Shown: positions 3,555-33,510 of the stretch, one piece after another
How positions within the stretch are numbered: position 1 is the first letter of the stretch
How the letters are laid out: the number at the start of each line of letters is the position of its first letter
From: an uncultured Burkholderiales bacterium
Lineage (GTDB): Bacteria > Pseudomonadota > Gammaproteobacteria > Burkholderiales > Burkholderiaceae_C
NCBI GenBank assembly: GCA_902825995.1
Contig: CADEDE010000004.1
Location: 3,977 to 67,976, forward strand
Direction: 5' to 3'
Length of the DNA: 64,000 nucleotides
Program-made: the position numbers and the translations under genes
The notes under the pieces: model-generated
Told to the model about the DNA's origin: nothing
Seen by the model: only the letters and a program-made list of their open reading frames with translations
Database searches by the model: none

Positions 3555-4865
3555 ATGGATACGAGCGTGATGAAGGCGATCGGCGGCACGGCCGTTCTGG
3601 CCGTGGCTGGCGGCCTGCTGTGGCTGGGTTCGCAGCCGAATGCGGCCGTGGCGCAGACGCCGGCAGCGTCGGCCGTAGCCGTGCCACCGACAACCCCCGT
3701 GAGCACCGTCGCCGGCATGCCGGCGGTGCCCGATGCGCGCAACCTGTACAGCGAAACCGCCGCCGGCAAGATCGGCCCGGCGCTGGCCGGCGACCTGGCG
3801 CGCATCTACGTGCCCAACCTGCGCTCGAACGACGTCTATGTCGTCGATCCGCAGGCCATGAAAGTCGTCGATCGCTTCAAGGTCGGCATCGGCCCGCAGC
3901 ACATCGTGCCGTCGTGGGATCTGCGCACGCTGTGGGTCACCAACAATGCCGAGGGCCGCAGCGACGGCAGCCTGACACCGATCGACCCGCGCAGCGGCAA
4001 GCCCGGCAATCCGGTGAAGGTCGATGACCCGTACAACATGTACTACACGCCCGACGGCCAATCGGCGATCGTGGTCGCCGAGGCCAGGAAGCGCCTGGAT
4101 TTCCGCGACCCAAAGACGATGACCCTGCAGTATTCGATCGATGTGACCGACTGCCCCGGCGTCAACCACGCCGACTTTGCGATCGACGGCCGCTTCGCGA
4201 TCTTCACCTGCGAGTTCTCCGGTACGCTGGCGAAGATCGACCTGGTCGAGCGCAAGGTGCTCGGCTACCTGAAGCTGACGCTGCCGGCCACGCGGTTGAA
4301 GGAAACACCCGGCGCACCGCGAACGAAACCCGGCCAGGCCTGGGAGCCCGGCCAAACCGAGTTTTGCACCGTGACCAAGGGCATGCCGCAGGACATTCGC
4401 AGCTCGCCCGACGGCAAGCGTTTCTATATCGCCGACATGCATGCCGACGGCGTACACGTCGTCGATGGCGCCTCGTTCAAAGAGGTCGGCTTCATCGCCA
4501 CCGGCCTGGGCGCGCATGGCCTGTACCCGAGCCGCGACGGCAAGCGCCTGTACGTGGCCAACCGCGGCTCGCACAAGATCCACGGCTCACGCCTGGGCAA
4601 CGGCGGTGTCACGGTGATCGACTTCGCCAGCGAGAAAGTGGTGGCGCGCTGGGCCGTTCCCGGCGGCGGCAGCCCCGACATGGGCAACGTCAGCGCCGAC
4701 GGCAAGTACCTCTGGCTGGCCGCGCGTTACGACGACGTGATCTACCGCTTCGACACCGCCAACGGCGACGTGGCGCAGGTCAAGGTGGGCGCCGAGCCGC
4801 ACGGCCTGACGGTGTGGCCACAGCCGGGGCGCTACTCGCTGGGGCATACCGGCAACCTGCGTTGA
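3555..4865 (+). CDS. YVTN-type beta-propeller repeat protein (secreted)
   Basis: ATG 3555 followed by a signal-like segment (AIGGTAVLAVAGGLLWLG). Repeated blades with LYVxN / LWVTN / FYIADM / LYVANRGS motifs. Confidence 0.7.
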   Translation: MDTSVMKAIGGTAVLAVAGGLLWLGSQPNAAVAQTPAASAVAVPPTTPVSTVAGMPAVPDARNLYSETAAGKIGPALAGDLARIYVPNLRSNDVYVVDPQAMKVVDRFKVGIGPQHIVPSWDLRTLWVTNNAEGRSDGSLTPIDPRSGKPGNPVKVDDPYNMYYTPDGQSAIVVAEARKRLDFRDPKTMTLQYSIDVTDCPGVNHADFAIDGRFAIFTCEFSGTLAKIDLVERKVLGYLKLTLPATRLKETPGAPRTKPGQAWEPGQTEFCTVTKGMPQDIRSSPDGKRFYIADMHADGVHVVDGASFKEVGFIATGLGAHGLYPSRDGKRLYVANRGSHKIHGSRLGNGGVTVIDFASEKVVARWAVPGGGSPDMGNVSADGKYLWLAARYDDVIYRFDTANGDVAQVKVGAEPHGLTVWPQPGRYSLGHTGNLR

Positions 4866-5731: not shown

Positions 5732-5798
5732 CCAACCCCAAGCTCACTTCGTTCGCAGCCCCCCAAGGGGGCGTCAGCACGCTTGGGGCGGCCCGGCG
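5729..5798 (+). repeat. Family-1 GC-rich hairpin element, copy A (intergenic)
   Basis: TGACCAACCCCAAGCTCACTTCGTTCGCAGCCCCCCAAGGGGGCGTCAGCACGCTTGGGGCGGCCCGGCG. The 7-bp stem is CCCCAAG (5761-5767) paired with CTTGGGG (5782-5788). Its TGA is the stop codon of the upstream CDS. Confidence 0.85.
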
Positions 5799-17118: not shown

Positions 17119-17619
17119 TCAGCCGCCCCGGCGCACGCGGCGCAACTCGTCGGCGATCAGCAGGGCGGCGCCCAGCGTGATGGCGCTGTCGGCGAGGTTG
17201 AAGCTGGGGAAGTACCAGCCGCGCCAATGCAGCTGGATGAAATCCACCACATGGCCGTGCAGCAGGCGGTCAACGACATTGCCCAGGGCCCCGCCCATGA
17301 TCATCGTGACCGCGAAGCAGAACAGTTTCTGCGTCGGATGGCGGTGCAGCATCCAGGCGATGAAGCCGGCCGCGACGATGCCCAGCGCGACGAAGAACCA
17401 GCGCTGCCAGCCCGCCGCGCCGGCCAGGAACGAGAATGCCGCGCCGCTGTTGTGCACGCGCACGAGATTGAAGAACGAGGTCACATGGCGGCTGTCGCCG
17501 AGCTGGAAATAACCCAGGATCAGGGTCTTGGTGAACTGGTCGAGGACGATGACCAACAGCGCCAGGCCGAGCCAGAGGGCGAGGCCGGGAGCGCCGGAGG
17601 AAGAGCGGGCCGCGCTCAA
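17119..17619 (-). CDS. lspA: Lipoprotein signal peptidase (signal peptidase II)
   Basis: [14 protein letters not shown] and [15 protein letters not shown] motifs. Start proposed at TTG 17619, overlapping the ileS TGA and giving 166 aa. An upstream ATG at 17673 would overlap ileS by 58 nt. Confidence 0.85.
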
Positions 17620-20549
17620 GCGATGCTGCGGACTTCGCCCGCGCCGTAGAGGTTGCTTGTACAACGCCCGCAAAGGGCCGGGTGCGCGGCGTCATGGCCG
17701 ACGTCGCTGCGCCAGTGCCAGCAGCGTTCGCACTTGGCGGCGGATGACGGTGTCACGGTGATGACCAGTGCAGCGCCGCACCGCAGCCTCGCCTGCGAAG
17801 TGATCAACACGAACTTCAGGTCTTCGCCCAGCGTGGCCAGCAGTTCATGGTCGGCCTCGTTCAGCGTCAGTGTGACTTCGGCTTGCAATGACGAACCGAC
17901 GCTGCCTTCGCTGCGCACCGCCTCGATGGCCTTGTTGACCTCGTCGCGGATGGTGCGGATGCGCTGCCACTTGGCGAGCAGCGCCGCATCGGGTGCGTCG
18001 AAACGCCAGAAAGTTTCGGTGAAGATCGACGGCGACTGGCCCGGCGCAAGCACCGGCCAGGCCTCCTCGGCCGTGAACGACAGGAACGGCGCCATCCAGC
18101 GCAGCATCGCGTGCGTGATCTGCCACAGCGCCGTCTGCGCCGAGCGGCGGGCGAGCGATTTCGGCGCGGTGGTGTAGAGGCGATCCTTCAGCACGTCGAG
18201 GTAGAACGCGCCCAAATCTTCGCTGCAAAAGAGCTGTAGCTTGGCGACCACCGGGTGGAACTCGAAGCGCTCGTAGTGGGCCAGCATTTCGGCCTGCAAC
18301 TCGGCCGCGCGCGACAGGGCCCAGCGGTCGATCTCGAGCATGTCAGCCACGGGCACGGCGTCGCGCCCGGCGTCGAAGTCGGCGATATTGGCGAGCAGGA
18401 AGCGCAGCGTATTGCGGATGCGCCGGTAGCTGTCGACCACCCGGGCCAGGATCTTCTTGTCGATCGGCGGGTCGCCGGCATAGTCGGTCGAGGCGCACCA
18501 CAGGCGCGCCACCTCGGCGCCCGGATCCTTGGCGAACTCGCGGATTTCGATGATGTTGCCGAGCGACTTGCTCATCTTGCGGCCCTGGCCATCGACCGTA
18601 AAACCGTGTGTGAGCAGGCCGCGATACGGTGCATGGCCTTCGAGCGCGCAGCCCAGCAGCAGGGCCGAATGAAACCAACCGCGGTGCTGGTCGTGGCCTT
18701 CGAGGTAGAGATCGGCTTCAGGGCCGGTTCGGTGGTGCCCGTCGGGATGCGAGCCGCGCAGCACGTGGAAGAAGGTCGAGCCGGAGTCGAACCAGACTTC
18801 GAGGATGTCGCTGCCTTTCGTATAGTCCGCAGCGTCTTTGGCACCGAGGATTTCTTCCGCAGTCACGCGACTCCAGGCCTCGACGCCGCCCCGCTCGACG
18901 ATATCCGCAGCACGGTCGAGTATGGCCATCGTGTCCGGATGCAGTTCGCCCGAATCCTTGTGCAGGAAGAAGGGCAGCGGCACACCCCAGCTGCGCTGGC
19001 GGCTGATGCACCAGTCGGGCCGGTTGGCGATCATGTCGCGCAGGCGGGCCTGGCCGTTGTCGGGGAAGAACGCGGTGGCGTCGATCGCCTCGAGCGCCAT
19101 TGCACGCAAGGTGCGCGGCGCCTTGTCCTTGGTGAAGACGCCCGCCGTTGACACATTTGCTTCGTCCATGCGGATGAACCACTGCGCGGCGGCGCGGTAG
19201 ATCACCGGCGTCTTGTGGCGCCAGCAATGCGGGTAGCTGTGGGTGATGGGCGAGGTGGCAAACAGGCGCCCGGCCTCGCGCAGCGCTTCGATGACGACCG
19301 GCACCGCCTTCCAGATATTCAGCCCGCCGAACAGCGGGAAGTCGGGTGCGTAGCTGCCGTGGCCCTGCACCGGGTTCAGGATTTGATCGACCTGCATGCC
19401 ATGCGCGGTGCATGAGTGGAAGTCATCCACGCCATAGGCCGGCGACGCATGCACGATGCCGGTGCCGTCGTCGGCGGTGGCGTAGTCGGCCAGATAGACC
19501 GGCGCGAGGCGGTCGTAGCCGGCGTCTATGTGCGCAAGGGGGTGGCGGAACAGGATGCCGCCGAGCTTCTCGCCCCGGGTCGTTGCGACCACATGGCCCT
19601 GCAGAGCGTAACGCCCGAGACATTTCTCGACCAGCGATGCCGCGAGCACGAGCTGCCCGCGCTCGGTGTGCACCAAGGCGTAGTCGAGTTCGGGATGGAG
19701 GTTGAGTGCCTGGTTGGCGGGAATCGTCCACGCGGTGGTGGTCCAGATCAGCGCAAAGGTTTCACCGACGATTTCAGGCAGACCGAAGGCTGCGGCCAGC
19801 TTGTCGGGCTCGGCGCACAAAAAGCCGACATCGAGCGTCTGCGATTTCTTGTCGGCATATTCGATCTCGAATTCGGCCAGCGACGAGCCGCAATCGAAGC
19901 ACCAATAGACCGGCTTCAGGCCGCGATAGACGAAGCCGCGCTCGATCACGCGCTTCAGGGCCCGCAACTCGCCGGCCTCGTTGGCGAAATCCATCGTGCG
20001 GTACGCATGCTCCCAATCGCCGAGCACGCCCAGGCGCTGGAAATCGGCCTTCTGCTGCGCGATTTGTTGGCTGGCGTAGGCCCGGCTCCTGGCCTGCATC
20101 TCGTCGCGGCTGAGCTTGCGGCCATGCGCCTTCTCGATCGCATTTTCGATCGGCAAGCCGTGGCAGTCCCAGCCCGGCACATAGCGCGCATCGAAGCCCG
20201 CCAGTTGCTTGGACTTGACGACCATGTCCTTCAGGATCTTGTTCACCGCGTGGCCGATGTGCAGCACGCCGTTGGCATACGGCGGGCCGTCGTGCAGGAC
20301 GAACAGCGGCGCACCGTGGCGCGCGTCGCGCAGCTTCTTGTACAGGCCTTGTTCGTTCCAATCCGCGATCCAGCCCGGCTCGCGCCTGGGCAAATCGCCG
20401 CGCATCGGAAACGGGGTGTCGGGCAGGTTCAGCGTAGCGCGGTAGTCGGGCCGGCAACTGCCGCCGGGCCGCCCCAAGGCCGTTGCGCTCCCCTCGGGGG
20501 ACGACGCCGTAGGCGTCCTGGGGCGGTCATTTGATTTCGGTTCGGACAT
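17616..20549 (-). CDS. ileS: Isoleucine--tRNA ligase
   Basis: 977 aa with HIGH ([11 protein letters not shown]), KMSKS ([10 protein letters not shown]) and a C-terminal zinc-finger pair (CERCWHW...CGRC). The N-terminus carries ~30 extra residues that include repeat copy B. Confidence 0.95.
20461..20529 (-). repeat. Family-1 element, copy B (inside the ileS 5' coding region)
   Basis: Minus-strand read: TGACCGCCCCAGGACGCCTACGGCGTCGTCCCCCGAGGGGAGCGCAACGGCCTTGGGGCGGCCCGGCGG. Translated as [23 protein letters not shown]. Confidence 0.85.
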
Positions 20550-21567: not shown

Positions 21568-22542
21568 TCAGGCGCGTCCCGGCTCGGCAAACCAGGCGCG
21601 CGCATCGGCACTGTCCTGCGCAATGCCTTCGCGCAAAGACGCCAAGCACGCGTAGATGCGCTCGTCGTGCAATTTGTGCAGCAGTTCGACCTTGACCACG
21701 TGACCGTAGGCACCATCGCGGCCGAGTTCGCCTGGCCAGTCCAGGCAATGCACCTCGAGCAGGATGCGCCCACTGGCATCGACCGTCGGCCGCCGGCCCA
21801 GGCTGGCGACGCCGGGCAAAGCTTGCGCAGCCAGGCCATGCGTGCGGGCCACAAAGATGCCCATCGCCGCGGGCGGATGGGGCAGGCGCAGGTTGAGGGT
21901 CGGGAAGCCCAGCTCGCGCCCGAGCCGGGCACCGTGCTGGACATGGCCGCTGATACTGTAGGGGCGGCCCAGCAGGGCCGCGGCGCGGACCATATCGCCG
22001 TTGGCCAAGGCCTCGCGCACGGTCGAACTCGATACGCGCTGACCATGCACTTCATAGCTTTGCATGCGCGCCACGTCGAAGCCGAGTGCGTCGCCGGCAG
22101 CGTCGAGCATGGCGTAGTCGCCGGCCCGCCTGGCGCCAAAGCGGAAGTCGTCGCCCACCAGCACGTAGCGCACGCCGAGGCCGCGCAGCAACACTTGCTC
22201 AATGAAGGCCTGCGGCGTCAACGCCGCCAAGCGTTCATCGAAGCGCAGCAGCACCGCCTGCTCGATACCGCAGCGTTCGAGTTCGGCGAACTTGTCGCGC
22301 AGCGTTGCGATGCGCGCCGGGGCGTCGGCAGAGCGACCCGCGGACCTGGCCCGGGCAGCGAAGAAATCGCGCGGATGCGGCTCGAAGGTCAGCACACAGG
22401 ATGGCAGGCCGCGGTGGCGGGCTTCGTTGATCAGCAAGGCCAGCATGGCCTGGTGGCCGCGGTGGACACCGTCGAAGCTGCCGATCGTGGCAGCGCAGGC
22501 CGGCGCCAGATCAGGATGGTGGAAACCGCGCAGGACTCGCAT
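21568..22542 (-). CDS. ribF: Bifunctional riboflavin kinase / FMN adenylyltransferase
   Basis: 324 aa (IGSFDGVHRGH, FEPHP, GFPTLNL, EVHCLD). ribF-ileS-lspA is conserved synteny. Confidence 0.93.
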   Translation of the reverse strand: MRVLRGFHHPDLAPACAATIGSFDGVHRGHQAMLALLINEARHRGLPSCVLTFEPHPRDFFAARARSAGRSADAPARIATLRDKFAELERCGIEQAVLLRFDERLAALTPQAFIEQVLLRGLGVRYVLVGDDFRFGARRAGDYAMLDAAGDALGFDVARMQSYEVHGQRVSSSTVREALANGDMVRAAALLGRPYSISGHVQHGARLGRELGFPTLNLRLPHPPAAMGIFVARTHGLAAQALPGVASLGRRPTVDASGRILLEVHCLDWPGELGRDGAYGHVVKVELLHKLHDERIYACLASLREGIAQDSADARAWFAEPGRA

Positions 22543-22600
22543 GAGCGCGATTATTGCGGCGCTGCCGGCGCCGCAGCGCTGAAACTCGCCGCTTCAGTCG

Positions 22601-22679
22601 GCGCTGGGCCGCTCCCGAGCCGACCGAGCGCCCCCTCGGGGGGGGCAGCCAGCCAAGCCAGCGTGGGGGCGGACATTCA
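22601..22679 (-). repeat. Family-1 element, copy C1 (intergenic hisA-ribF)
   Basis: Minus-strand read: TGAATGTCCGCCCCCACGCTGGCTTGGCTGGCTGCCCCCCCCGAGGGGGCGCTCGGTCGGCTCGGGAGCGGCCCAGCGC. The stem CCCGAG/CTCGGG is fully Watson-Crick. Confidence 0.8.
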
Positions 22680-22685
22680 GGCCAG

Positions 22686-22761
22686 CGCCGGGCCGCCCCA
22701 AGCGGCCTGAGTGCCCCCTCGGGGGGCAGCGAGCGCAGCGAGCGTGGGAGCGGATATTTCA
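22686..22761 (-). repeat. Family-1 element, copy C2 (its TGA is the hisA stop codon)
   Basis: Minus-strand read: TGAAATATCCGCTCCCACGCTCGCTGCGCTCGCTGCCCCCCGAGGGGGCACTCAGGCCGCTTGGGGCGGCCCGGCG. It lies 6 nt from copy C1. Confidence 0.85.
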
Positions 22762-23502
22762 GGCCTCGGCCAGTTGGTCGGCGCGCTGCTGGGCCGCCGC
22801 GAAATCGAGCGCGCCGGTGTAGATCGCACGTCCGCAGATCACGCCGTCAACGCCCTCGCCTTGGATCGCGCACAGGCGCTCGATATCGGCCATGCCGGCC
22901 AACCCGCCCGAGGCGATCACCGGGATCGTCAGCGCCTGCGCCAGCTTCAAGGTGGCCTCGATATTGATGCCGGTGAGCATGCCGTCGCGGCCGATATCGG
23001 TATAGATCACGCCTTCGACGCCGTAGTCCTCGAATTTCCTGGCCAGGTCGATGACCTCGTGCCCGGTGAGCTTGCTCCAGCCATCGGTGGCCACCTTGCC
23101 GTCCCTGGCGTCGAGGCCAACGATGATGTGGCCGCCGAAGGCGGTGCAGGCGTCGCGCAGAAAACCGGGGTTCTTGACCGCGGCGGTGCCGATGATGACG
23201 TAGCTCAAGCCGTCGTCGAGGTAGCGTTCGATGGTGTCGAGGTCGCGCAGACCGCCGCCGATCTGCACCGGAATTTGATCCCCCACCGCACGAACGATGG
23301 CCTTGACCGCCGACTCGTTGACCGGCTTGCCGGCAAAGGCGCCATTCAGATCCACCAGGTGCAGGCGCCGCGCACCGGCGGCGAGCCAGCGCCGCGCCAT
23401 CGCCGCGGGATCTTCGCCGAAGGTGGTGGCGGCTTTCATGTCGCCCTGTTCGAGGCGCACGCAGTGGCCGTCCTTGAGGTCGATCGCGGGTATCAGCAGC
23501 AT
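22759..23502 (-). CDS. hisA: ProFAR isomerase (1-(5-phosphoribosyl)-5-[(5-phosphoribosylamino)methylideneamino]imidazole-4-carboxamide isomerase)
   Basis: 247 aa ([30 protein letters not shown]). Confidence 0.95.
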
Positions 23503-23527
23503 GGTGGGGAATGGGGGAGAGGAACGC

Positions 23528-24187
23528 TCAGGGCTTCCATTGCAGGAAGTTGCGGTACAGCGTCAGGCCGTCGGCGGCGCTCTTCTCCGGGTGGAACTGG
23601 GTGGCAAAAATGTTATCGCGTGCCATCGCCGAGGTAAAGGGCGCACCGTAGTCGGTGAGGCCGGCACTGTGGCGCGCCTCCGACGGCTCGGCGTAGTAGC
23701 TGTGGACAAAGTAGAACCAGGCGCCGTCGGGGATGCCGGCCCAGAGCGCGTGGCGATGTTGGCCGTGGCGCGCCTGGCGCACGCGGTTCCAGCCCATCTG
23801 CGGCACCTTGTAGCGGCTGCCGTCGGGTTGCAGCCGGCCATCGAGCAAAAATTTCCGCACGCGCCCGGCGATCAGGCCCAGGCAAGGCGTGTCCTGCTCC
23901 TCGCTGTGGTCAAGCAGCATCTGCATGCCCACGCAGACGCCAAAAAGCGGCTTGTTGGCGGCGGCGTGCAGCACGGCATCTTGCAGGCCCGATTCGCGCA
24001 ATTCACGCATGCAATCGCGAATGCCGCCCTGGCCGGGCAGCACCACGCGCTCGGCGGCCATGACATCCTGCGCACGCTGCGTGATCAAGACCTCGACGCC
24101 GCTGCCCGCGGCCACATGCAGCACCGCCTGCGACACCGAGCGCAGGTTGCCCATGCCGTAATCGACGACGGCAACGGTTCTCGACAT
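23528..24187 (-). CDS. hisH: Imidazole glycerol phosphate synthase, glutaminase subunit
   Basis: 219 aa class-I GATase (LPGQGG, GVCVGMQ, QFHPEKS). Confidence 0.95.
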
Positions 24188-24191
24188 GGCG

Positions 24192-24785
24192 CTACAAGGT
24201 TCCCTTGGTGGACGGAATCACACCCACGCTGCGCGCGTCGATCGCCAGCGCCATGCGCAGCGCGCGGCCGAAGGCCTTGAACACCGTCTCGCACTGGTGG
24301 TGGGCGTTGGCGCCCTTCAGGTTGTCGATATGCAGCGTGGCCAGGGCATGGTTGGCAAAACCTTGGAAGAATTCGTAGGTGAGCTGGGTATCGAAGCCGC
24401 CGACCATGCCGCTCTTGAACGGCACTTCCATGTGCAGGCCCGGCCGCCCCGAAAAATCGATCACCACGCGCGACAGGGCTTCATCCAGCGGCACATAGGC
24501 GTGGCCATAGCGCGTGAGGCCGGCCTTGTCGCCCACGGCCTTGGCAACGGCCAGGCCCAGCGTGATGCCCACGTCTTCCACCGTGTGGTGGCCATCGATG
24601 TGCAGATCGCCCTGGGCGTCGATCTCGATATCGATCAGGCCATGCCGCGCCACCTGATCCAGCATGTGGTCGAAAAAGCCGATGCCCGTGGCCAGCTTGG
24701 CGACGCCCGTTCCGTCGAGATTCACCCGCGCGCGGATCTGCGTTTCCTTGGTATTGCGCTGGACTTCGGCGATACGTTGGGTCAT
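24192..24785 (-). CDS. hisB: Imidazoleglycerol-phosphate dehydratase
   Basis: 197 aa ([23 protein letters not shown]). Confidence 0.95.
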
Positions 24786-25862
24786 CTAGAGGCTCTCTTT
24801 CAGGGCATCGATCATCAGCGCATTTTCCTCGGGAGTGCCCACCGTCAGGCGCAGGCAGTTGGCCAGCAGCGGGTGCAGCGCCTCGACATTCTTCACCAGC
24901 ACGCCGCGCTGTTTCATGCCGGCGAAGGCGCGCTTGGCGTCGGGCACGCGCACGAGGATCATGTTGGCTTCGCTGGGATAGTGTTTTACGCCGGGCAGCG
25001 CCTGGAGCAGCGCTTGCAGGCGATCGCGCTCGCTGCGGATTACCGCCGCCTGGCGCGCGTACTCGTCGGCATGTTCGAGCGCGAACAGCGCCGCCTCGCA
25101 GTTCAGCACGCTGACGTTGAACGGCGGACGCAGCTTGTCGAGCTCGGCGATCAATTCGCGCCGGCCGATCAGGTAGCCGATACGCACGCCAGCCAGGCCG
25201 AATTTGCTCATCGTGCGCATCAGCAACACATGCGCGTGGCGTTGCAATCGCGCCAGCGAGTCGCGCGCGGCAAAGGGCTGGTAAGCCTCGTCCATCACCA
25301 CCAGGCCCGGCGCGGCCTCGATGATCGCGTCGATGGCCGCGTCGTCCCACAGATTGGCCGTGGGGTTGTTCGGATAGGCCAGATAGACGATCGCCGGGCG
25401 GTGCTCGCGCACGGCGGCCAGCATGGCGGGCAGGTCGAGCTCGAAATCCGGCGTCGTCGGCACACCGACGAATTTCAGGCCCTGCAATTGAGCCGCCATC
25501 GCATACATCACGAAGCCCGGCAGCGGCGCGAGCACCGTGGCGCCGGACACATCGCAGGCCAGCGCCAGCAGCGAAATCAGCTCGTCGGAGCCGTTGCCGA
25601 GCATGATTTCGTTGCCCTCGGGCATCCGCGCATGGCGGGCCAATGCGGCGCGCAAGACATCGCTGCGCTCGGCCGGGTAGCGGTTGAGCGCCACCTCGCC
25701 CAGGCGTTCGCCCAGGGCCTTGCGCAGCGGCGCCGGCAGCGCGAACGGGTTTTCCATCGTATCGAGCTTGACCATGCCCGCGCTGGGTTGCACGGCATAG
25801 GCGTGCATGGCCTGGACATCCTGGCGCAGCACGCGCGCCATGCGTTCGGCCAGCAGGCTCAT
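24786..25862 (-). CDS. hisC: Histidinol-phosphate aminotransferase
   Basis: 358 aa from ATG 25862 (MSLLAERMARVLRQDV) with MSKFGLAGVRIGY carrying the PLP lysine. The ATG overlaps the vapC TGA (ATGA). Confidence 0.93.
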   Translation of the reverse strand: MSLLAERMARVLRQDVQAMHAYAVQPSAGMVKLDTMENPFALPAPLRKALGERLGEVALNRYPAERSDVLRAALARHARMPEGNEIMLGNGSDELISLLALACDVSGATVLAPLPGFVMYAMAAQLQGLKFVGVPTTPDFELDLPAMLAAVREHRPAIVYLAYPNNPTANLWDDAAIDAIIEAAPGLVVMDEAYQPFAARDSLARLQRHAHVLLMRTMSKFGLAGVRIGYLIGRRELIAELDKLRPPFNVSVLNCEAALFALEHADEYARQAAVIRSERDRLQALLQALPGVKHYPSEANMILVRVPDAKRAFAGMKQRGVLVKNVEALHPLLANCLRLTVGTPEENALMIDALKESL

Positions 25863-26308
25863 TCCGAAAGCCCGATCTGCTGCGGCGTGGACTTGAAAGG
25901 GTTCACGATATCGACGCCGTCGATCTGCTGGCCGTGCTGCAGGTCTTCGCTGAGCAGGTGGCCGCAGCCCTGCTGCTGCGCGGCGGCAACGATCAGCGCA
26001 TCCCAATAGTTCAGATCGAAGCGGCTCTCGATGGCCCAGGCCGATTCCACCGTCGCGTGATCGATCGCCCACGGCTGCCAATGCTGGTAGCGGCGCACCT
26101 CGGCGCGTGCATCGCCGGCCGCGATCGCGTTGCTGAACTTCTTGCGCGCGTTGCTATAGAACTCGTTCAGAACCTGGGTGCTGATGCGCCCGCACTGGTG
26201 CTGCCAGCAATAGGCCACCCAGGCCCGTGCACCGGCTTGCTTGGCGGGCTCGCGCGGATCGAAGCAATACAGCAGCACATTGGTATCGACGAAGACCGTA
26301 CGGCTCAC
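25859..26308 (-). CDS. vapC: PIN-domain ribonuclease toxin (VapC-like)
   Basis: 149 aa with the acidic PIN quartet in context (FVDTNVLLY, VLNEF, YWDALIVAAA, LLSEDLQHG). The start overlaps the antitoxin stop by 4 nt. Confidence 0.85.
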   Translation of the reverse strand: MSRTVFVDTNVLLYCFDPREPAKQAGARAWVAYCWQHQCGRISTQVLNEFYSNARKKFSNAIAAGDARAEVRRYQHWQPWAIDHATVESAWAIESRFDLNYWDALIVAAAQQQGCGHLLSEDLQHGQQIDGVDIVNPFKSTPQQIGLSE

Positions 26309-26538
26309 CGCGCACCCCGCGTGTACATCTCGTCGCGCGTGAGGTAGCGCCCTTTGCTGGGCCCCCAGCTCTTGAACTCCAGGGCCTCGCGCATGGCGCG
26401 CTCGTAGGCATCGTTGCGGTGCATCTTTTCAGCCACCAGTTCGCCGACCAGGCGCGACACGCTGGTATTGCGCCGCGCGGCTTCCATGCGCGCCCAGTCG
26501 GCGGCGCCGTCTTCCATCGTGATAGTCACGTTTTTCAT
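26305..26538 (-). CDS. vapB: Antitoxin partner of VapC (ribbon-helix-helix-like)
   Basis: 77 aa. MKNVTITMEDGAADWARMEAARRNTSVSRLVGELV fits a beta-strand followed by helix-helix. It lies immediately upstream of, and overlapping, the PIN gene. Confidence 0.75.
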   Translation of the reverse strand: MKNVTITMEDGAADWARMEAARRNTSVSRLVGELVAEKMHRNDAYERAMREALEFKSWGPSKGRYLTRDEMYTRGAR

Positions 26539-26547
26539 GGCGCGTCT

Positions 26548-26605
26548 TTCGTGGCAATGTCACTGGTTTCGTGTTCCACTATTTTCGTGTTGCACGAACT
26601 TCGTG
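26548..26605 (-). promoter_or_regulatory. Candidate vapBC operator / internal promoter region
   Basis: The 67-bp, relatively AT-rich gap between the hisD stop and the vapB ATG holds four TTCGTG direct repeats (26548, 26568, 26584, 26600). The last forms the 13-bp palindrome CACGAACTTCGTG (26593-26605). Confidence 0.35.
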
Positions 26606-28389
26606 TCAACCCGTCAATGGCAACACCATCTCGCGCTCGCCGTCATTCACCTTGCCGGTGTAGGCAAACCCAAAGCCTTCGTAGAAAGCCCCCACCGGGT
26701 TCTCGGGCAGGTGCGACAAAGCAATCTGTGCCACGCCCATGCGCCTGGCCTCGCCGATCAACCAGCGCATCGCCGCCTGGCCGTGGCCTTGGCGCTGGTA
26801 ACGCGCATCGATCATCAGGCGCCAGATATAGAGCTGGTCGGCCGGCTCGTCGGGATCGCGGCGCGCATCCCAGAGCAACAGGAAGCCGACGGGCTCGCCG
26901 TTCGAGTACAGGCCCATCGGCCGGCCGGCCGGCTTGTACGCGGCCTGCGCGAGGGACTTTGCATTCGTCGCGACGAAACGCGCCTGCTCGGGCGTGATGC
27001 TCAGCGCGATGAGTGAGTCGACATCGGCGTCGCGCACCGGCCGCACTTCAAAGTGCGGCGGCGCCGCGGCTACCGGCACCGCGCCGAGCCGCATTTCGGC
27101 CGCGCGCGCGTGGGCTTGCAGGCCCTCGCCATAGGCCAGTTCGGCGGCAATCGGACCCAGCGTATTGGCGCCCGCCGCGCTCACCTCGATCAGGCTCGTG
27201 CGCTTTTGAAAGTCATATACGCCCAGCGGCGATGAGAAGCGCGCCGTGCCCGAGGTCGGCAGCACGTGGTTCGGGCCGGCGCAATAGTCGCCCAGGCTTT
27301 CGCTGGTGTAGGCCCCGAGAAAAATCGCGCCGGCATGCTTGAGCAGCGGCTCCCAGCGCTGCGGCTCGGCACTCGACACTTCGAGATGCTCGGGCGCGAT
27401 GCGGTTGCTAAGCGTGCAAGCTTCTTCCATCGAGCGCGTGAGGATCAGCGCGCCGCGGCCTTCGAGCGAGGCGCGGATGATTCCTTCGCGCGGCAGCGTC
27501 GGCAACAGCCGTTCGATGGACTCGCGCACCGCGTCGAGATAGGCTGCATCGGGGCACAGCAGCAGGCTCTGCGCCAGTTCATCGTGCTCGGCCTGCGAAA
27601 ACAAATCCATCGCCACCCAGTCGGGTGGCGTCGTGCCATCGGCAATGACGAGGATTTCGCTGGGGCCGGCGATCATGTCGATGCCGACCTGGCCGAAGAC
27701 ATGCTTCTTCGCGCTGGCCACATAGGCGTTGCCGGGGCCGGTGACCTTGTCCACGCGCGGGATCGTTGCCGTGCCATAGGCCAGCGCGGCGATCGCCTGC
27801 GCGCCGCCGATCGTGAAGGCGCGCGTGATACCGGCCACATGCGCGGCGGCGAGCACGAGGGCATTCTTCTCGCCGCGCGGCGTCGGCACGACCATCACGA
27901 TCTCGCCCACGCCCGCCACTTGAGCTGGCACCGCATTCATCAACAGGCTCGACGGGTACGCCGCCTTGCCGCCCGGCACATAGATGCCCACGCGATCCAG
28001 CGGCGTGACCTTCTGGCCAAGCAGGCTGCCGTCTTCGTCGCGGTAGCGCCACGATCGGCCGCAGGCATCGAGCTGGCGCTCGTGGTAGTTGCGGATTCGC
28101 GCGGCCGCCGCTTGCAGGGCATCGCGCTGCGCGGGGGTGATCGAGCCAAAAGCCGCGCGCATTTCGTCGCGCGTGAGCGTCAGCGCCGCCATCGACGCGG
28201 CCGCCAATGCATCGAAGCGCGCAGTGCACTCGAGCACGGCGGCATCGCCGCGGGTGCGCACGTCGGCGAGGATTTGGACCACGCGCGATTCGATCTCACC
28301 GTCGGCCTGCGCCGACCAATGCCGCAGGCGCGCGAATTCGGCCTCGAAATCGGCGTTGCGGGTGTCGAGGCGGCGCAGCTTCATTTGGC

Positions 28390-28393
<4 letters not shown>
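26606..28393 (-). CDS. hisD: Histidinol dehydrogenase fused to a C-terminal GNAT acetyltransferase domain
   Basis: 595 aa. Residues 1-~436 are HisD ([15 protein letters not shown], ending [10 protein letters not shown]). An 11-aa linker ([11 protein letters not shown]) is followed by a 148-aa GNAT fold ([29 protein letters not shown]). The reading frame is continuous with no stop. Confidence 0.85.
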
Positions 28394-30760
<2,367 letters not shown>

Positions 30761-30826
30761 CGTGGGCGGATTGTAGGTCGTCGGCTGTCGTACATTGCGG
30801 CGCTGCCCCCGAAGAGGATCTTGTCG

Positions 30827-31420
30827 ATGAGTACAACGCAGATTGTCACCTGGGTCGTTCTGGTCACGCTGGCCCTGTGGCTGCTGGCCGCCTACAACCG
30901 CCTGGTGCGCAGCCGCAACGAGATTGCCAACGCCTTTGCGCAGATCGACGTGCAATTGAAGCGCCGCTACGACCTGATTCCGAACCTGGTCGAAGTGGCG
31001 CGCAAATACGTGCAGCACGAACGCGACACACTCGAAGCCGTGATCGCAGCGCGCAACACGGCCAAGAGCGCCGGCGACGCAGCGCGTGCCAAGCCGGCCG
31101 ACGCGGCCCGCATCGGCGCGCTGGCCGGCGCCGAGGGCGCGCTGGCCGGGGCGATGAAGCAGCTGGCCGTCGTCGTCGAGGCCTATCCCGAACTGAAGGC
31201 CGACGCCACGCTGCGCGAATTGAGCGAAGAACTCGGCCACACCGAAAACCGCATTGCCTTCGCGCGCCAGGCCTTCAACGACAGCGTGCTCGACTACAAC
31301 AATGCCGCCCAGCAGGCACCGACCAATATCGTCGCCGGCCTGTTCGGCTTCAAGCAGGCAGCGCTGCTCGAAGCGACCTCGAGCGACGCTGAGCGCAGCG
31401 CGGTCCGCGTCAATCTGTAG
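30827..31420 (+). CDS. lemA: LemA-family protein
   Basis: 197 aa with an N-terminal TM helix, then YNRLVRSRNEIANAFAQIDVQLKRRYDLIPNLVE and YPELKAD. Confidence 0.88.
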   Translation: MSTTQIVTWVVLVTLALWLLAAYNRLVRSRNEIANAFAQIDVQLKRRYDLIPNLVEVARKYVQHERDTLEAVIAARNTAKSAGDAARAKPADAARIGALAGAEGALAGAMKQLAVVVEAYPELKADATLRELSEELGHTENRIAFARQAFNDSVLDYNNAAQQAPTNIVAGLFGFKQAALLEATSSDAERSAVRVNL

Positions 31421-31434
31421 GCGCCACCGGCACG

Positions 31435-33510
31435 ATGCGCTTTCGCCAGCACGAGCGCACGGCCCGGCAATCCACGCTGCGCCTGCTGGCCCTGTTTGCG
31501 CTGGTCGTCCTTGGCCTGCTGGTCGCTGTCAATGCGGTATTGGCGCTGATCTACTGGGCAACATTTCCATTCGCACGCGGCTTCCCGACGCTTTTCTTCG
31601 AGACCAACAGTGCGCTGGTGCTGTTGTTCGTGCTGGGTGGTTGCTGGGTCGAGTCGATGCGCCTGCGCGAGGGCGGCGCGCATGTCGCGCGCCTGGCCGG
31701 CGGGCGCGCGGCGCAGCTGTCCAGTGGCGGCGAACTGGGCCTGCTGGAACGGCGCTTCACCAACATCGTGCAGGAAATGAGCCTGGCCAGCGGCTATCCC
31801 GGCTGGCCGCCCGCCTGGGTGCTGCCCAAGGACGATGCGATCAACGCCTTCGCCGCCGGCTGGGGTGCAGACGACGCGGTGGTCGCCGTCACGCGCGGCG
31901 CACTCGAGCGCCTGACGCGCGCCGAGTTGCAGGGTGTCGTCGCGCACGAGTTCAGCCATCTGGTGCATGGCGATACGCGCCTGAATATGCGCCTGATCGG
32001 CCTGGTCTGGGGCCTGCAGATGATCTGGGGCCTGGGCCTCTCGCTGTGGGAGCCCGACGAGCAGGGCCGCCGCGGCGTCGGCAGCCTGTTCGGCCTGGGC
32101 CTGATGGCGGTCGGCTCGTTGGGCTGGGCCGCGGGGCGCCTGTTGCAGGCCGCGGTGAGCCGGCAGCGCGAATTCCTGGCCGATGCCTCGGCGGTGAAAT
32201 ATACGCGCGTCGTGGATGGCCTGGGCGGCGCGCTGCGCAAGATCGCCGACCAGCAACTGCAGGGCCGCGCCGGGCTGCAAAGCGCGCATACCACGAGCCT
32301 GGCGCACCTGCTCTTGAGCGCCCCCGGACCTGCCGCTTCGCGTCAGCCCCCCCGAGGGGGTCAAGGAAACTTGGGAGCGGCCCGGCGTTTCCTCGAGAGC
32401 GATCGCGGTGCGGGCGCCGGCTGGCGGGCGCTGTGGCACACGCACCCGCCCTTGGCTGAGCGGCTGCGCCGCTTGTACGGGCGCGAAATGTTGCCGCTGG
32501 CGGCGCCGGTGCTCGCGGTCGGTGCTGACGCCATCGAACCGCCGATGCGTCTGGCACCAGGCCCGTTAGCGCACGCCCGCGGGCCCACCGGCGCGAGCCA
32601 GCCCAGCGGCGCGAGCCCCGACGCCGAGCGCCACGACGCGCTGCAAAACCCGGCTTCCTTCGACGCACGGGCGCGCGAACAAGAGGCCCTGGCCCGCATC
32701 GAACATTGGCACGGTCCCGGCGAATGGCAGGCCGCGATGCTCGCGCTGGCACTCGATTTCGATGCACCCGAGGCCACGCTGCGCTGGCTCGAATGGCGCA
32801 ACGCCACCGCCGATCTCGGCGTGGCCGCATCAGTGCAGCGCGAGATCGAGGCCCTCGGCGCCAACGCGCGGCGGCAGGTCTTCACGACGCTGATGCACCG
32901 GGCGCGCAGCGCAACGCCCACGCAACGCCGCATCTTGCGGCTCGCGCTGCGGCAGCGCTGGTCGGCGCTGCCGCCGTCAGCGGCCACGCAATGGCGCGCA
33001 CTCGGGCTTGGGTTGCTGCTGAGCGCCCCCGGACCTGCCGCTTCGCGTCAGGCCCCCCGAGGGGGTCAAGGAAACTTGGGAGCGGCCCGGCGTTTCCTCG
33101 AGAGCGACAAGCGTCGGCCCCTCACGCGTGCCGACACGGCCGCATCACTGGCGCTGCACTCCGATCCCGCGCACGCCGCCACCGGGCTGCTCGCGCGCGC
33201 CCTGGGCGCTACGCCCGCTGCGGCCCAGGCCTGGCACAACGCAGCCACACAGGCGCTGGCCGAACTCGGCGCCGCCGCGCCGCGCGGCCCTGCCGCGGGC
33301 CTGGCGCCGGCCACGCGGCCGCGAAACCTTCATCTTGCCTTGCGCGTGCGCCGCATCGCGCCGATGCAGCGGCCGCTGCTGTTGCGGGCTTGGCTGGGCG
33401 CCGCCGAGCGCGGCGGCCTGTTCAGCCACGCCGGCACCGGCGATGCGCTGCACCTGGCCTGCCTGCTGCTCGAGGTGCCGGTGCCCGAGAGCCTGGTGCC
33501 CAGGCCCTGA
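31435..33510 (+). CDS. M48-family zinc metallopeptidase with a long C-terminal extension
   Basis: 691 aa with N-terminal TM helices, HEFSHLVHGD (HExxH), REFLADASA and THPPLAERLRRL. Adjacent to lemA. Contains two in-frame repeat copies. Confidence 0.8.
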   Translation: MRFRQHERTARQSTLRLLALFALVVLGLLVAVNAVLALIYWATFPFARGFPTLFFETNSALVLLFVLGGCWVESMRLREGGAHVARLAGGRAAQLSSGGELGLLERRFTNIVQEMSLASGYPGWPPAWVLPKDDAINAFAAGWGADDAVVAVTRGALERLTRAELQGVVAHEFSHLVHGDTRLNMRLIGLVWGLQMIWGLGLSLWEPDEQGRRGVGSLFGLGLMAVGSLGWAAGRLLQAAVSRQREFLADASAVKYTRVVDGLGGALRKIADQQLQGRAGLQSAHTTSLAHLLLSAPGPAASRQPPRGGQGNLGAARRFLESDRGAGAGWRALWHTHPPLAERLRRLYGREMLPLAAPVLAVGADAIEPPMRLAPGPLAHARGPTGASQPSGASPDAERHDALQNPASFDARAREQEALARIEHWHGPGEWQAAMLALALDFDAPEATLRWLEWRNATADLGVAASVQREIEALGANARRQVFTTLMHRARSATPTQRRILRLALRQRWSALPPSAATQWRALGLGLLLSAPGPAASRQAPRGGQGNLGAARRFLESDKRRPLTRADTAASLALHSDPAHAATGLLARALGATPAAAQAWHNAATQALAELGAAAPRGPAAGLAPATRPRNLHLALRVRRIAPMQRPLLLRAWLGAAERGGLFSHAGTGDALHLACLLLEVPVPESLVPRP
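32315..32387 (+). repeat. Family-1 element, copy D1 (in frame inside the M48 peptidase gene)
   Basis: TGAGCGCCCCCGGACCTGCCGCTTCGCGTCAGCCCCCCCGAGGGGGTCAAGGAAACTTGGGAGCGGCCCGGCG. Translated within LLLSAPGPAASRQPPRGGQGNLGAARRFLESD. Confidence 0.85.
33020..33092 (+). repeat. Family-1 element, copy D2 (in frame inside the M48 peptidase gene)
   Basis: Near-identical to D1: about 3 mismatches over the ~96 bp shared block 33013-33108 versus 32308-32403. Confidence 0.85.

Follow-up and report, generated by a model that had tools for sequence, protein, structure and literature searches.

A VapBC-type toxin-antitoxin cassette at the hisD/hisC junction of Burkholderiales histidine operons

Introduction

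The VapBC modules of Shigella and Salmonella, VapBC2 of Rickettsia felis and VapBC20, VapBC26 and VapBC30 of Mycobacterium tuberculosis are toxin-antitoxin (TA) bicistrons in which the antitoxin gene comes first and overlaps the toxin gene by 4 nt. The toxin is a PIN-domain protein with four acidic residues, the antitoxin combines an N-terminal DNA-binding domain with a C-terminal toxin-binding tail, and palindromic repeats lie over the promoter. A gene pair of what appears to be the same plan is found between hisD and hisC in the histidine (his) operon of an uncultured Burkholderiales bacterium, within a 64,000-nt stretch of contig CADEDE010000004.1 (GenBank assembly GCA_902825995.1), which as a whole is referred to here as the window. 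Classical VapBC modules occur on plasmids or islands and at varied sites, whereas the family to which this pair belongs is locked to the hisD/hisC junction in at least 96 loci, the window included. Also unlike the classical modules, it evolves as slowly as the enzymes that flank it, overlaps a downstream biosynthetic gene, to which it is predicted to be translationally coupled, and apparently moves only together with its his flanks.

Chromosomal type II TA modules linked to starvation-response or histidine genes are known from Escherichia coli, namely relA-mazEF and yefM-yoeB, the latter next to the his operon. These modules lie beside a metabolic operon and not within one, have no translational coupling to the gene of an enzyme, and use the toxins MazF and YoeB. 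The concept of "alien" genes inside his operons is used by Fani and co-workers and is mentioned in general terms in PMC10138114, where Papaleo et al. (2009) are cited for Burkholderia. Like the vapBC cassette, such genes are non-his insertions into what is, for the rest, a conserved order of his genes in Burkholderiales. In the literature searched, TA modules within his operons were not encountered, nor was the promoter of such a module or the hisD/hisC junction as a polymorphic insertion site. Public annotations name the two genes "CopG family transcriptional regulator" and "PIN domain-containing protein"; the genes themselves are therefore already annotated, and it is the site-locked, polymorphic, promoter-bearing cassette that appears to be undescribed.

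What chromosomal TA modules do is a long-standing open question. A module that sits at one exact site in an essential operon and is present, absent or allele-swapped among culturable relatives (e.g., Rhizobacter sp. Root404 versus Root16D2) offers a clean natural comparison, with which three readings can be separated: a selfish element that operon polarity shelters, a gene for defence, and a his regulator acting by promoter feeding. On the evidence given below we consider it probable, with reservations, that the two genes form a true type II VapBC module on a self-contained cassette, site-locked and maintained as an addictive or accessory module, and not a built-in histidine sensor.

Gene Layout and Cassette Boundaries

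All positions given are those of the window, in which the cassette, hisG-hisD and hisC-hisB-hisH-hisA all lie on the minus strand. The hisD gene, which here carries an in-frame C-terminal GNAT extension (26606–28393, 595 aa), is followed after a spacer of 67 nt by the vapB-like open reading frame (ORF) (26305–26538, ATG start, 77 aa), the vapC-like PIN ORF (25859–26308, GTG start, 149 aa) and hisC for histidinol-phosphate aminotransferase (24786–25862, 358 aa; NCBIfam hisC, E=1.4e-91). The N-terminus of HisC starts MSLLAERMARVLRQ and can be aligned with the HisC N-termini of relatives. An earlier note, made from this DNA alone, had proposed a same-strand VapBC pair between hisD and hisC with overlapping genes on either side of vapC. 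This description is borne out by the ORF layout, by the Pfam PIN match and by several weaker lines of evidence for a ribbon-helix-helix (RHH)-type partner: the vapB stop and vapC start overlap by 4 nt in GTGA (26305–26308), and the vapC TGA and hisC ATG overlap in ATGA (25859–25862), which is at the same time the right boundary of the cassette.

Where these boundaries lie is seen when carrier and empty Rhizobacter loci are aligned. The two differ by a clean indel of ~720–740 bp between the final hisD codons and the ATG of hisC, with flanks that are mostly 70–95% identical (median ~85%). The cassette is thus only ~0.75 kb in size and contains vapB and vapC and no further gene. No recombinase is encoded in it, and a search of its ends gave no flanking inverted or direct repeats beyond chance, no terminal inverted repeats and no target-site duplication. 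A transposon, an insertion sequence (IS) element or an integron cassette was rejected for these reasons, the boundaries being simply the hisD stop and the hisC start. The cassette illustrates how a TA module may spread without a mobility gene, by way of conserved housekeeping flanks.

The earlier note had regarded the ATGA overlap as a special tie between the toxin and hisC. This part of it has to be given up, for the same overlap joins hisD directly to hisC in 38 of 49 loci without the cassette, and vapC to hisC in 73 of 95 loci with it; it is best read as a constraint on hisC translation and not as a toxin-enzyme link. The left end of the cassette would bring in a sigma-70 promoter whose TTGACA swallows the hisD stop codon, and the right end would restore ATGA, so that translation of hisC would be coupled to the reading frame of vapC in place of that of hisD. 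Initiation at hisC would then depend on termination of vapC translation. The cassette is in this respect an example of an insertion that would preserve translational coupling by recreating the ATGA junction it has interrupted.

Occupancy of the Site among Relatives

A scan anchored on VapC (one genome per species, with a PIN alignment as query) gave 514 relatives at E<=1e-3. In 79 of the best 80 of these 514, vapB-vapC is found directly upstream of hisC-hisB, the carriers belonging to Rubrivivax, Roseateles/Pelomonas, Ideonella, Aquabacterium, Methylibium, Rhizobacter, Inhella and allied Burkholderiales. Even VapC alleles with as little as 54% identity to the window protein occupy this site. 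Fixation across the clade, which these figures seem to imply, was nevertheless rejected as an ascertainment artefact, since an unbiased scan of metagenome contigs anchored on HisC found most relatives empty. Among its 74 informative loci hisD is joined directly to hisC in 49; vapBC is present in 17, only a GNAT extension of HisD in five, and another junction state in three.

Empty and carrier loci interleave when they are compared by HisB and/or HisD identity, whichever is available. For example, the empty locus L145 is 93% identical to the carrier L029, and L105 and L078 are 91% identical. The closest his relative of the window among the HisC-anchored loci, L089, is empty at identities of 94% (HisG), 85% (HisD), 87% (HisC) and 90% (HisB). 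In Piscinibacter sp. XHJ-5, for which the genome is complete, and in Rhizobacter sp. Root16D2 hisD overlaps hisC and there is no cassette, whereas Rhizobacter sp. Root404 carries one (locus L080). Comparison of the junction in relatives, which the earlier note had proposed as a check, thus gave a divided answer: the same family does sit at the same site, but its presence is optional, with two thirds of the HisC-anchored loci and the named isolates just mentioned being empty. Its optional presence speaks against an indispensable part in histidine regulation, and the link between histidine starvation and the TA pair put forward in the earlier note is weakened because the cassette is dispensable.

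The only vapBC copy found outside a his operon is at 3759–4453 of L074, from a Steroidobacteraceae metagenome-assembled genome, where the operator palindromes are kept. Its VapC is altered at otherwise invariant positions (R41P, GDAR to DDVR, H84Y and W102R), and its surroundings are of lower GC content and poorly coding; it may be a transferred copy in decay. A different departure from the usual layout was observed in L011, L013, L016, L039, L054, L060, L061 and L082, where hisD and vapB are separated by 0.8–3.2 kb of unrelated genes and vapBC is still attached to hisC. Judged from ORF translations, these inserts include genes for a beta-lactamase-like serine hydrolase, a GNAT protein, an esterase, a PEP-CTERM protein and a protein of the endonuclease/exonuclease/phosphatase family.

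Promoter and Operator-Like Sites

The spacer between hisD and vapB contains the only sigma-70-like site within 24000–31000. Its −35 hexamer TTGACA (26604–26609, minus strand) forms the left boundary of the cassette and includes the hisD TGA stop (26606–26608); the −10 hexamer GAAAAT (26581–26586, minus strand) lies 17 nt downstream, and together the two match the consensus in 10 of 12 positions. Superimposed on this putative vapB promoter are three operator-like sites of the pattern CACGAA-N-TTCGTG with a 16-bp period. Site 1, CACGAAGTTCGTG (26593–26605), is a perfect 13-bp palindrome and overlaps the −35 hexamer; site 2, CACGAAAATAGTG (26577–26589), has 2 mismatches, lies 16 bp from site 1 and overlaps the −10 hexamer; site 3, CACGAAACCAGTG (26561–26573), is degenerate, lies 16 bp from site 2 and is placed over the leader, where a further half-site CACGAA is found at 26548–26553. 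Site 1 is kept in almost every locus and is the only perfect copy of the palindrome in the 64-kb window, and a search of the window for additional operators, as expected of a regulon, recovered only the spacer sites, other matches with 2 mismatches being within chance.

This architecture is widely kept. Among 80 related vapB upstream regions TTGACA is present in 56, at least one perfect palindrome in 67 and at least two half-sites in 77, and the hisD stop lies inside TTGACA in 39 of 68 loci. Promoter and palindromes together are retained in about 80 loci, including L074; because they persist at this non-his location, the element belongs to vapBC and not to the his genes. Most likely VapB or the VapBC complex binds the spacer palindromes, which cover the −35 region, the −10 region and the leader, and thereby would repress its own transcription. 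The near invariance of the VapB N-terminus (see below) fits an invariant operator.

It had been claimed in the earlier note that expression of the TA pair depends on transcription of the his operon. The finding of a separate promoter with three conserved operator-like palindromes in the spacer speaks against this, and the dependence probably runs the other way, the his genes relying on the vapB promoter. From hisD to hisC the minus strand has no terminator-like site, nor does RNA folding indicate a gate for hisC or an attenuator, the vapC/hisC junction (z=+0.77) and the vapB leader (z=−1.45) both being non-significant. With no terminator on either side, vapBC is probably transcribed from its own promoter as well as by read-through from hisG-hisD (possibly from murA), and transcripts from the vapB promoter would continue into hisC-hisB-hisH-hisA. 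In at least seven loci vapB is directly preceded by a gene of opposite orientation, and nine loci showed no hisGD in the up to ~3.7 kb of upstream sequence examined; in those genomes, therefore, the vapB promoter must transcribe hisC, and where hisD is no longer upstream it would be the only promoter of hisC-hisB-hisH-hisA.

The starvation link of the earlier note can be sharpened into an adaptive circuit, in which labile VapB would sense translation or proteolysis and decay under amino-acid shortage, that of histidine included, the vapB promoter would be derepressed, and expression of hisC-hisB-hisH-hisA would be boosted, with freed VapC slowing growth through the cleavage of RNA; the host would keep the cassette as a regulator of its distal his genes. 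Such a circuit would agree with a cassette promoter that must transcribe hisC (no terminator, ATGA overlap) and with the observation that vapBC keeps to hisC even in genomes that have hisGD at another place or a divergent gene upstream. It would agree, too, with a purifying selection equal to that on the his enzymes, and there is no classical His leader by which the operon could otherwise be regulated: an Rfam scan of 22000–32000 at E<=1 for a His leader or attenuator RNA of the enterobacterial type gave one spurious snoRNA match only. The same negative leaves the premise of the earlier note, a his operon that responds to starvation, a supposition in this case. On the other hand, the cassette is missing from L089, from most HisC-anchored loci and from named isolates whose operon is otherwise identical, so that his regulation can do without it. 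The ATGA coupling comes from the hisD/hisC junction and did not evolve for the toxin, and neither the proteins nor the leader contain anything specific for histidine. Allele swapping and presence/absence polymorphism are, moreover, better suited to accessory genes. All in all, we regard a circuit of this kind as rather unlikely. It is unlikely, too, that in carrier genomes the VapB-repressed promoter has become the main promoter of hisC-hisB-hisH-hisA, and in some of them the only one, with unstable VapB as a starvation sensor whose loss would raise the distal his enzymes and free a PIN RNase that throttles translation. If this were true, a TA module would have been co-opted as regulator of an amino-acid operon for which the window shows no attenuator.

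Toxin and Antitoxin

The 149-aa protein is a PIN-domain protein (Pfam, E=6.9e-11, above the gathering score) with homologues that number in the thousands. The acidic residues D8, E49, D103 and D122 are all intact in the window, and an alignment of 26 homologues shows no variation at any of the four. A catalytically dead PIN ORF, which the earlier note had named as an outcome that would speak against it, is consequently not indicated, the tetrad being intact. The AlphaFold model (predicted local distance difference test, pLDDT, 87; predicted template-modelling score, pTM, 0.85) has the PIN fold and matches the structures of VapC20 and VapC26 from M. tuberculosis and of VapC from Klebsiella and Shigella with template-modelling (TM) scores of 0.55–0.66, although sequence identity to solved VapCs is only 11–21%. 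We infer that VapC would act as a toxic RNase restrained by VapB.

The best match of VapC is, however, of a different nature. PcrIIC1 (PDB 8wmm, 8wmn and 8wr4), a PIN-like protein in complex with the type II-C Cas9 from Chryseobacterium, is the sole sequence match in the PDB (E=4.2e-10) and the top fold match (TM 0.73–0.80). The two proteins share the N-terminal motif DTN(V/I)LLYA.D.RD..K.DRA and the C-terminal motif LLSED...IVNPF; PcrIIC1 differs in having no RHH partner gene, and its identity to the window VapC is only 24%. The ORFs identified at 20–32 kb of the window are housekeeping genes, none of which was recognised as cas, no dedicated cas or CRISPR search having been made, and related loci show only his genes around vapBC. 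A much weaker Foldseek likeness links the VapC model to the cyclodehydratase RohQ, itself PIN-like and with imidazole bound in its solved structure (E 0.1–0.5, TM ~0.6, not significant), which is curious given the place of vapC in a histidine operon.

For the 77-aa protein the evidence is softer. It gave a weak Pfam match to DUF6364 (E=0.0027, below the cut-off), and near-identical proteins carry the CopG name at NCBI. Its AlphaFold model consists of an extended N-terminus followed by two helices in RHH topology, with pLDDT 87–94 at residues 10–40. The Foldseek neighbours of the model are almost all RHH proteins, most RHH DNA-binding-domain matches superimposing over 40–47 residues with a root-mean-square deviation of ~1 Å, at non-significant E values (>0.5). 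Together these results support its assignment as an RHH-type antitoxin, as far as a predicted structure allows.

Residues ~1–50 of VapB, which comprise the predicted RHH DNA-binding domain, are nearly invariant across loci, whereas the putative toxin-binding C-terminal tail is variable and of two types (allele types A and B), REALEFKSWG... in 64 loci and NEWLSRDRTW... in 16. These types coincide with clusters of VapC and with the length of the vapB/vapC overlap (4 versus 20 or 29 nt), one of these three lengths being found in 80 of 87 scored loci. That the antitoxin tail co-varies with the toxin indicates that neutralisation is under selection and argues for a working TA pair.

These properties bear on the idea that the PIN protein is domesticated and non-toxic, serving in his mRNA processing or in binding of an imidazole intermediate, with the RHH protein as its transcriptional partner. 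One could point to the many invariant non-catalytic residues, which are unusual, to the non-toxin PcrIIC1 as top match in both sequence and structure, and to the fold likeness with RohQ. The RohQ match is not significant, however, and a domesticated protein would hardly be expected to retain the canonical TA order of overlapping genes with the antitoxin first, an intact acidic tetrad, and an antitoxin C-terminus whose co-variation with VapC implies selected neutralisation, in a cassette that is dispensable in relatives. Domestication is accordingly very improbable.

Selection and Recombination

The ratio of non-synonymous to synonymous substitution rates (dN/dS), determined by the Nei-Gojobori method on 18 close pairs, is 0–0.145 for vapB and 0.03–0.14 for vapC, as compared with 0.015–0.40 for hisB, hisC and hisD. 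The GC content at third codon positions (GC3) of vapB and vapC, 0.83–0.85, is equal to that of the neighbouring genes. Spurious ORFs are generally abundant in GC-rich DNA, and this is all that could be said for the pair being an annotation artefact, i.e., chance ORFs in a GC-rich spacer. The suggestion is refuted by the above-threshold Pfam PIN match, the thousands of homologues, a dN/dS of ~0.1, the GC3 and the conserved synteny, and its probability is negligible. Indeed, on the grounds of homologues, invariant acidic residues and the dN/dS of vapC, neither the PIN ORF nor the histidine-operon genes are chance ORFs.

Mean pairwise amino-acid distances are 0.21 for VapB and 0.32 for VapC, and 0.18 for HisB, 0.18 for HisD and 0.31 for HisC. 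The distances of VapBC correlate poorly with those of HisB plus HisD (r=0.20; HisC 0.50), for which reason strict vertical inheritance, as of an operon component fixed throughout the clade, was rejected. In four close pairs the nucleotide identity of hisD and hisC is mostly 80–98%; it drops to ~40–80% (typically 50–70%) precisely in the tract that begins near codon 45 of vapB and runs up to the vapC 3′ end. Divergent alleles, consisting of the VapB C-terminus plus VapC, thus appear to have been exchanged between close relatives. Something similar is seen in hisC, which comes in two deep allele classes (~33% amino-acid distance) that do not follow hisB/hisD (7–9% distance in the same pairs, e.g., L080 versus L083, L014 versus L029, and L145 versus L029). 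It follows that hisC, too, is exchanged by recombination and that the whole junction is a recombination mosaic. A plasmid or phage origin was considered and dismissed: plasmid-borne VapBC relatives are distant, with at most 41% identity, and none were found in the phage sequences searched. A single site with many alleles and with presence/absence variation is, we infer, most simply accounted for by exchange via the his flanks, which are conserved.

Presence/absence within a genus and replacement by divergent alleles at one locus are also typical of defence genes, and phage defence has been demonstrated for many type II TA modules. The cassette might therefore serve in anti-phage or anti-plasmid defence by abortive infection, the his operon providing constitutive transcription and a safe harbour. 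Yet neither protein matches any PADLOC model, no defence genes are in the neighbourhood, where the flanks are housekeeping genes, and neither phage-borne relatives nor counter-defence homologues were found. A defence function is thus quite unlikely.

The Cassette as a Probable Accessory Module

When this material is taken together, an addictive or accessory VapBC module that would spread, and swap alleles, by recombination in the conserved his flanks still appears the better description. Its persistence would be guarded by strong purifying selection, by toxin-antitoxin addiction and by its position, polar damage being expected to hit histidine biosynthesis. Coupling to the histidine supply would be a by-product of location, and the promoter feed into the distal his genes a side effect.

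Several points weigh against this description and should be thought of when it is used. Toxicity, neutralisation, operator binding, promoter activity and co-transcription are all read from sequence, and spread by recombination from mosaic identity patterns; the cassette may instead be an old insertion that has been lost repeatedly. GAAAAT makes no more than a moderate −10 hexamer, and roughly one locus in four has no obvious TTGACA. The linkage of vapBC to hisC persists where hisD has been lost, which could indicate a host function. The nearest solved relative of VapC, in sequence and in fold, is associated with Cas9 and is no classical toxin. Finally, a conservation of non-catalytic residues as strong as that seen, e.g., in GDARAEVRRYQ.W.PW is odd for a purely selfish TA module.

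Other Features of the his Operon

The his genes of the window are on one strand and in the conserved order murA-hisG-hisD-hisC-hisB-hisH-hisA of the Burkholderiales type. Upstream of hisD lies hisG (28390–29106, minus strand), the true start of which is probably internal to the ORF, as judged from homologues that align only from about residue 27. Downstream of the cassette follow hisB (24192–24785), hisH (23528–24187) and hisA (22759–23502), all on the minus strand. After hisA come ribF (21568–22542) and ileS (17616–20549), and not hisF, hisI or hisE. In Rhizobacter sp. Root16D2 a second His_biosynth gene, probably hisF, directly follows hisA; in Piscinibacter sp. XHJ-5 such a gene, again probably hisF, is separated from hisA by one gene on the opposite strand.

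HisD of the window contains Histidinol_dh at residues 28–436 (E=8.6e-164) and GNAT at residues 482–576 (Pfam), the GNAT part corresponding to ~26606–27085. Besides the window, the HisD-GNAT fusion was found in L020, L027, L030, L036, L062, L070–L073, L079, L108, L118, L133, L143 and L144. In 16 of 17 GNAT-carrying loci it is fused to HisD in the same frame and with no stop codon between, with or without vapBC. Since the fusion recurs regardless of vapBC, GNAT is a second optional module at the hisD/hisC junction. We know of no described HisD-GNAT bifunctional enzyme.

The window contains a repeat resembling repetitive extragenic palindromic (REP) elements. Its hairpin core, CCCCCGAGGGGGC, is present in 6 copies, against a chance expectation of 0.16. 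The stretch between hisA and ribF (22543–22758) has two copies of ~80 nt in tandem, and single copies are at 5760–5772 and, in a region of the nominal hisG ORF 5′ end without homologue alignment, at 29062–29074. The remaining two (32349–32361 and 33054–33066) are within the ORF at 31435–33510, in which they give rise to a duplicated peptide (LLLSAPGPAASRQ.PRGGQGNLGAARRFLESD).

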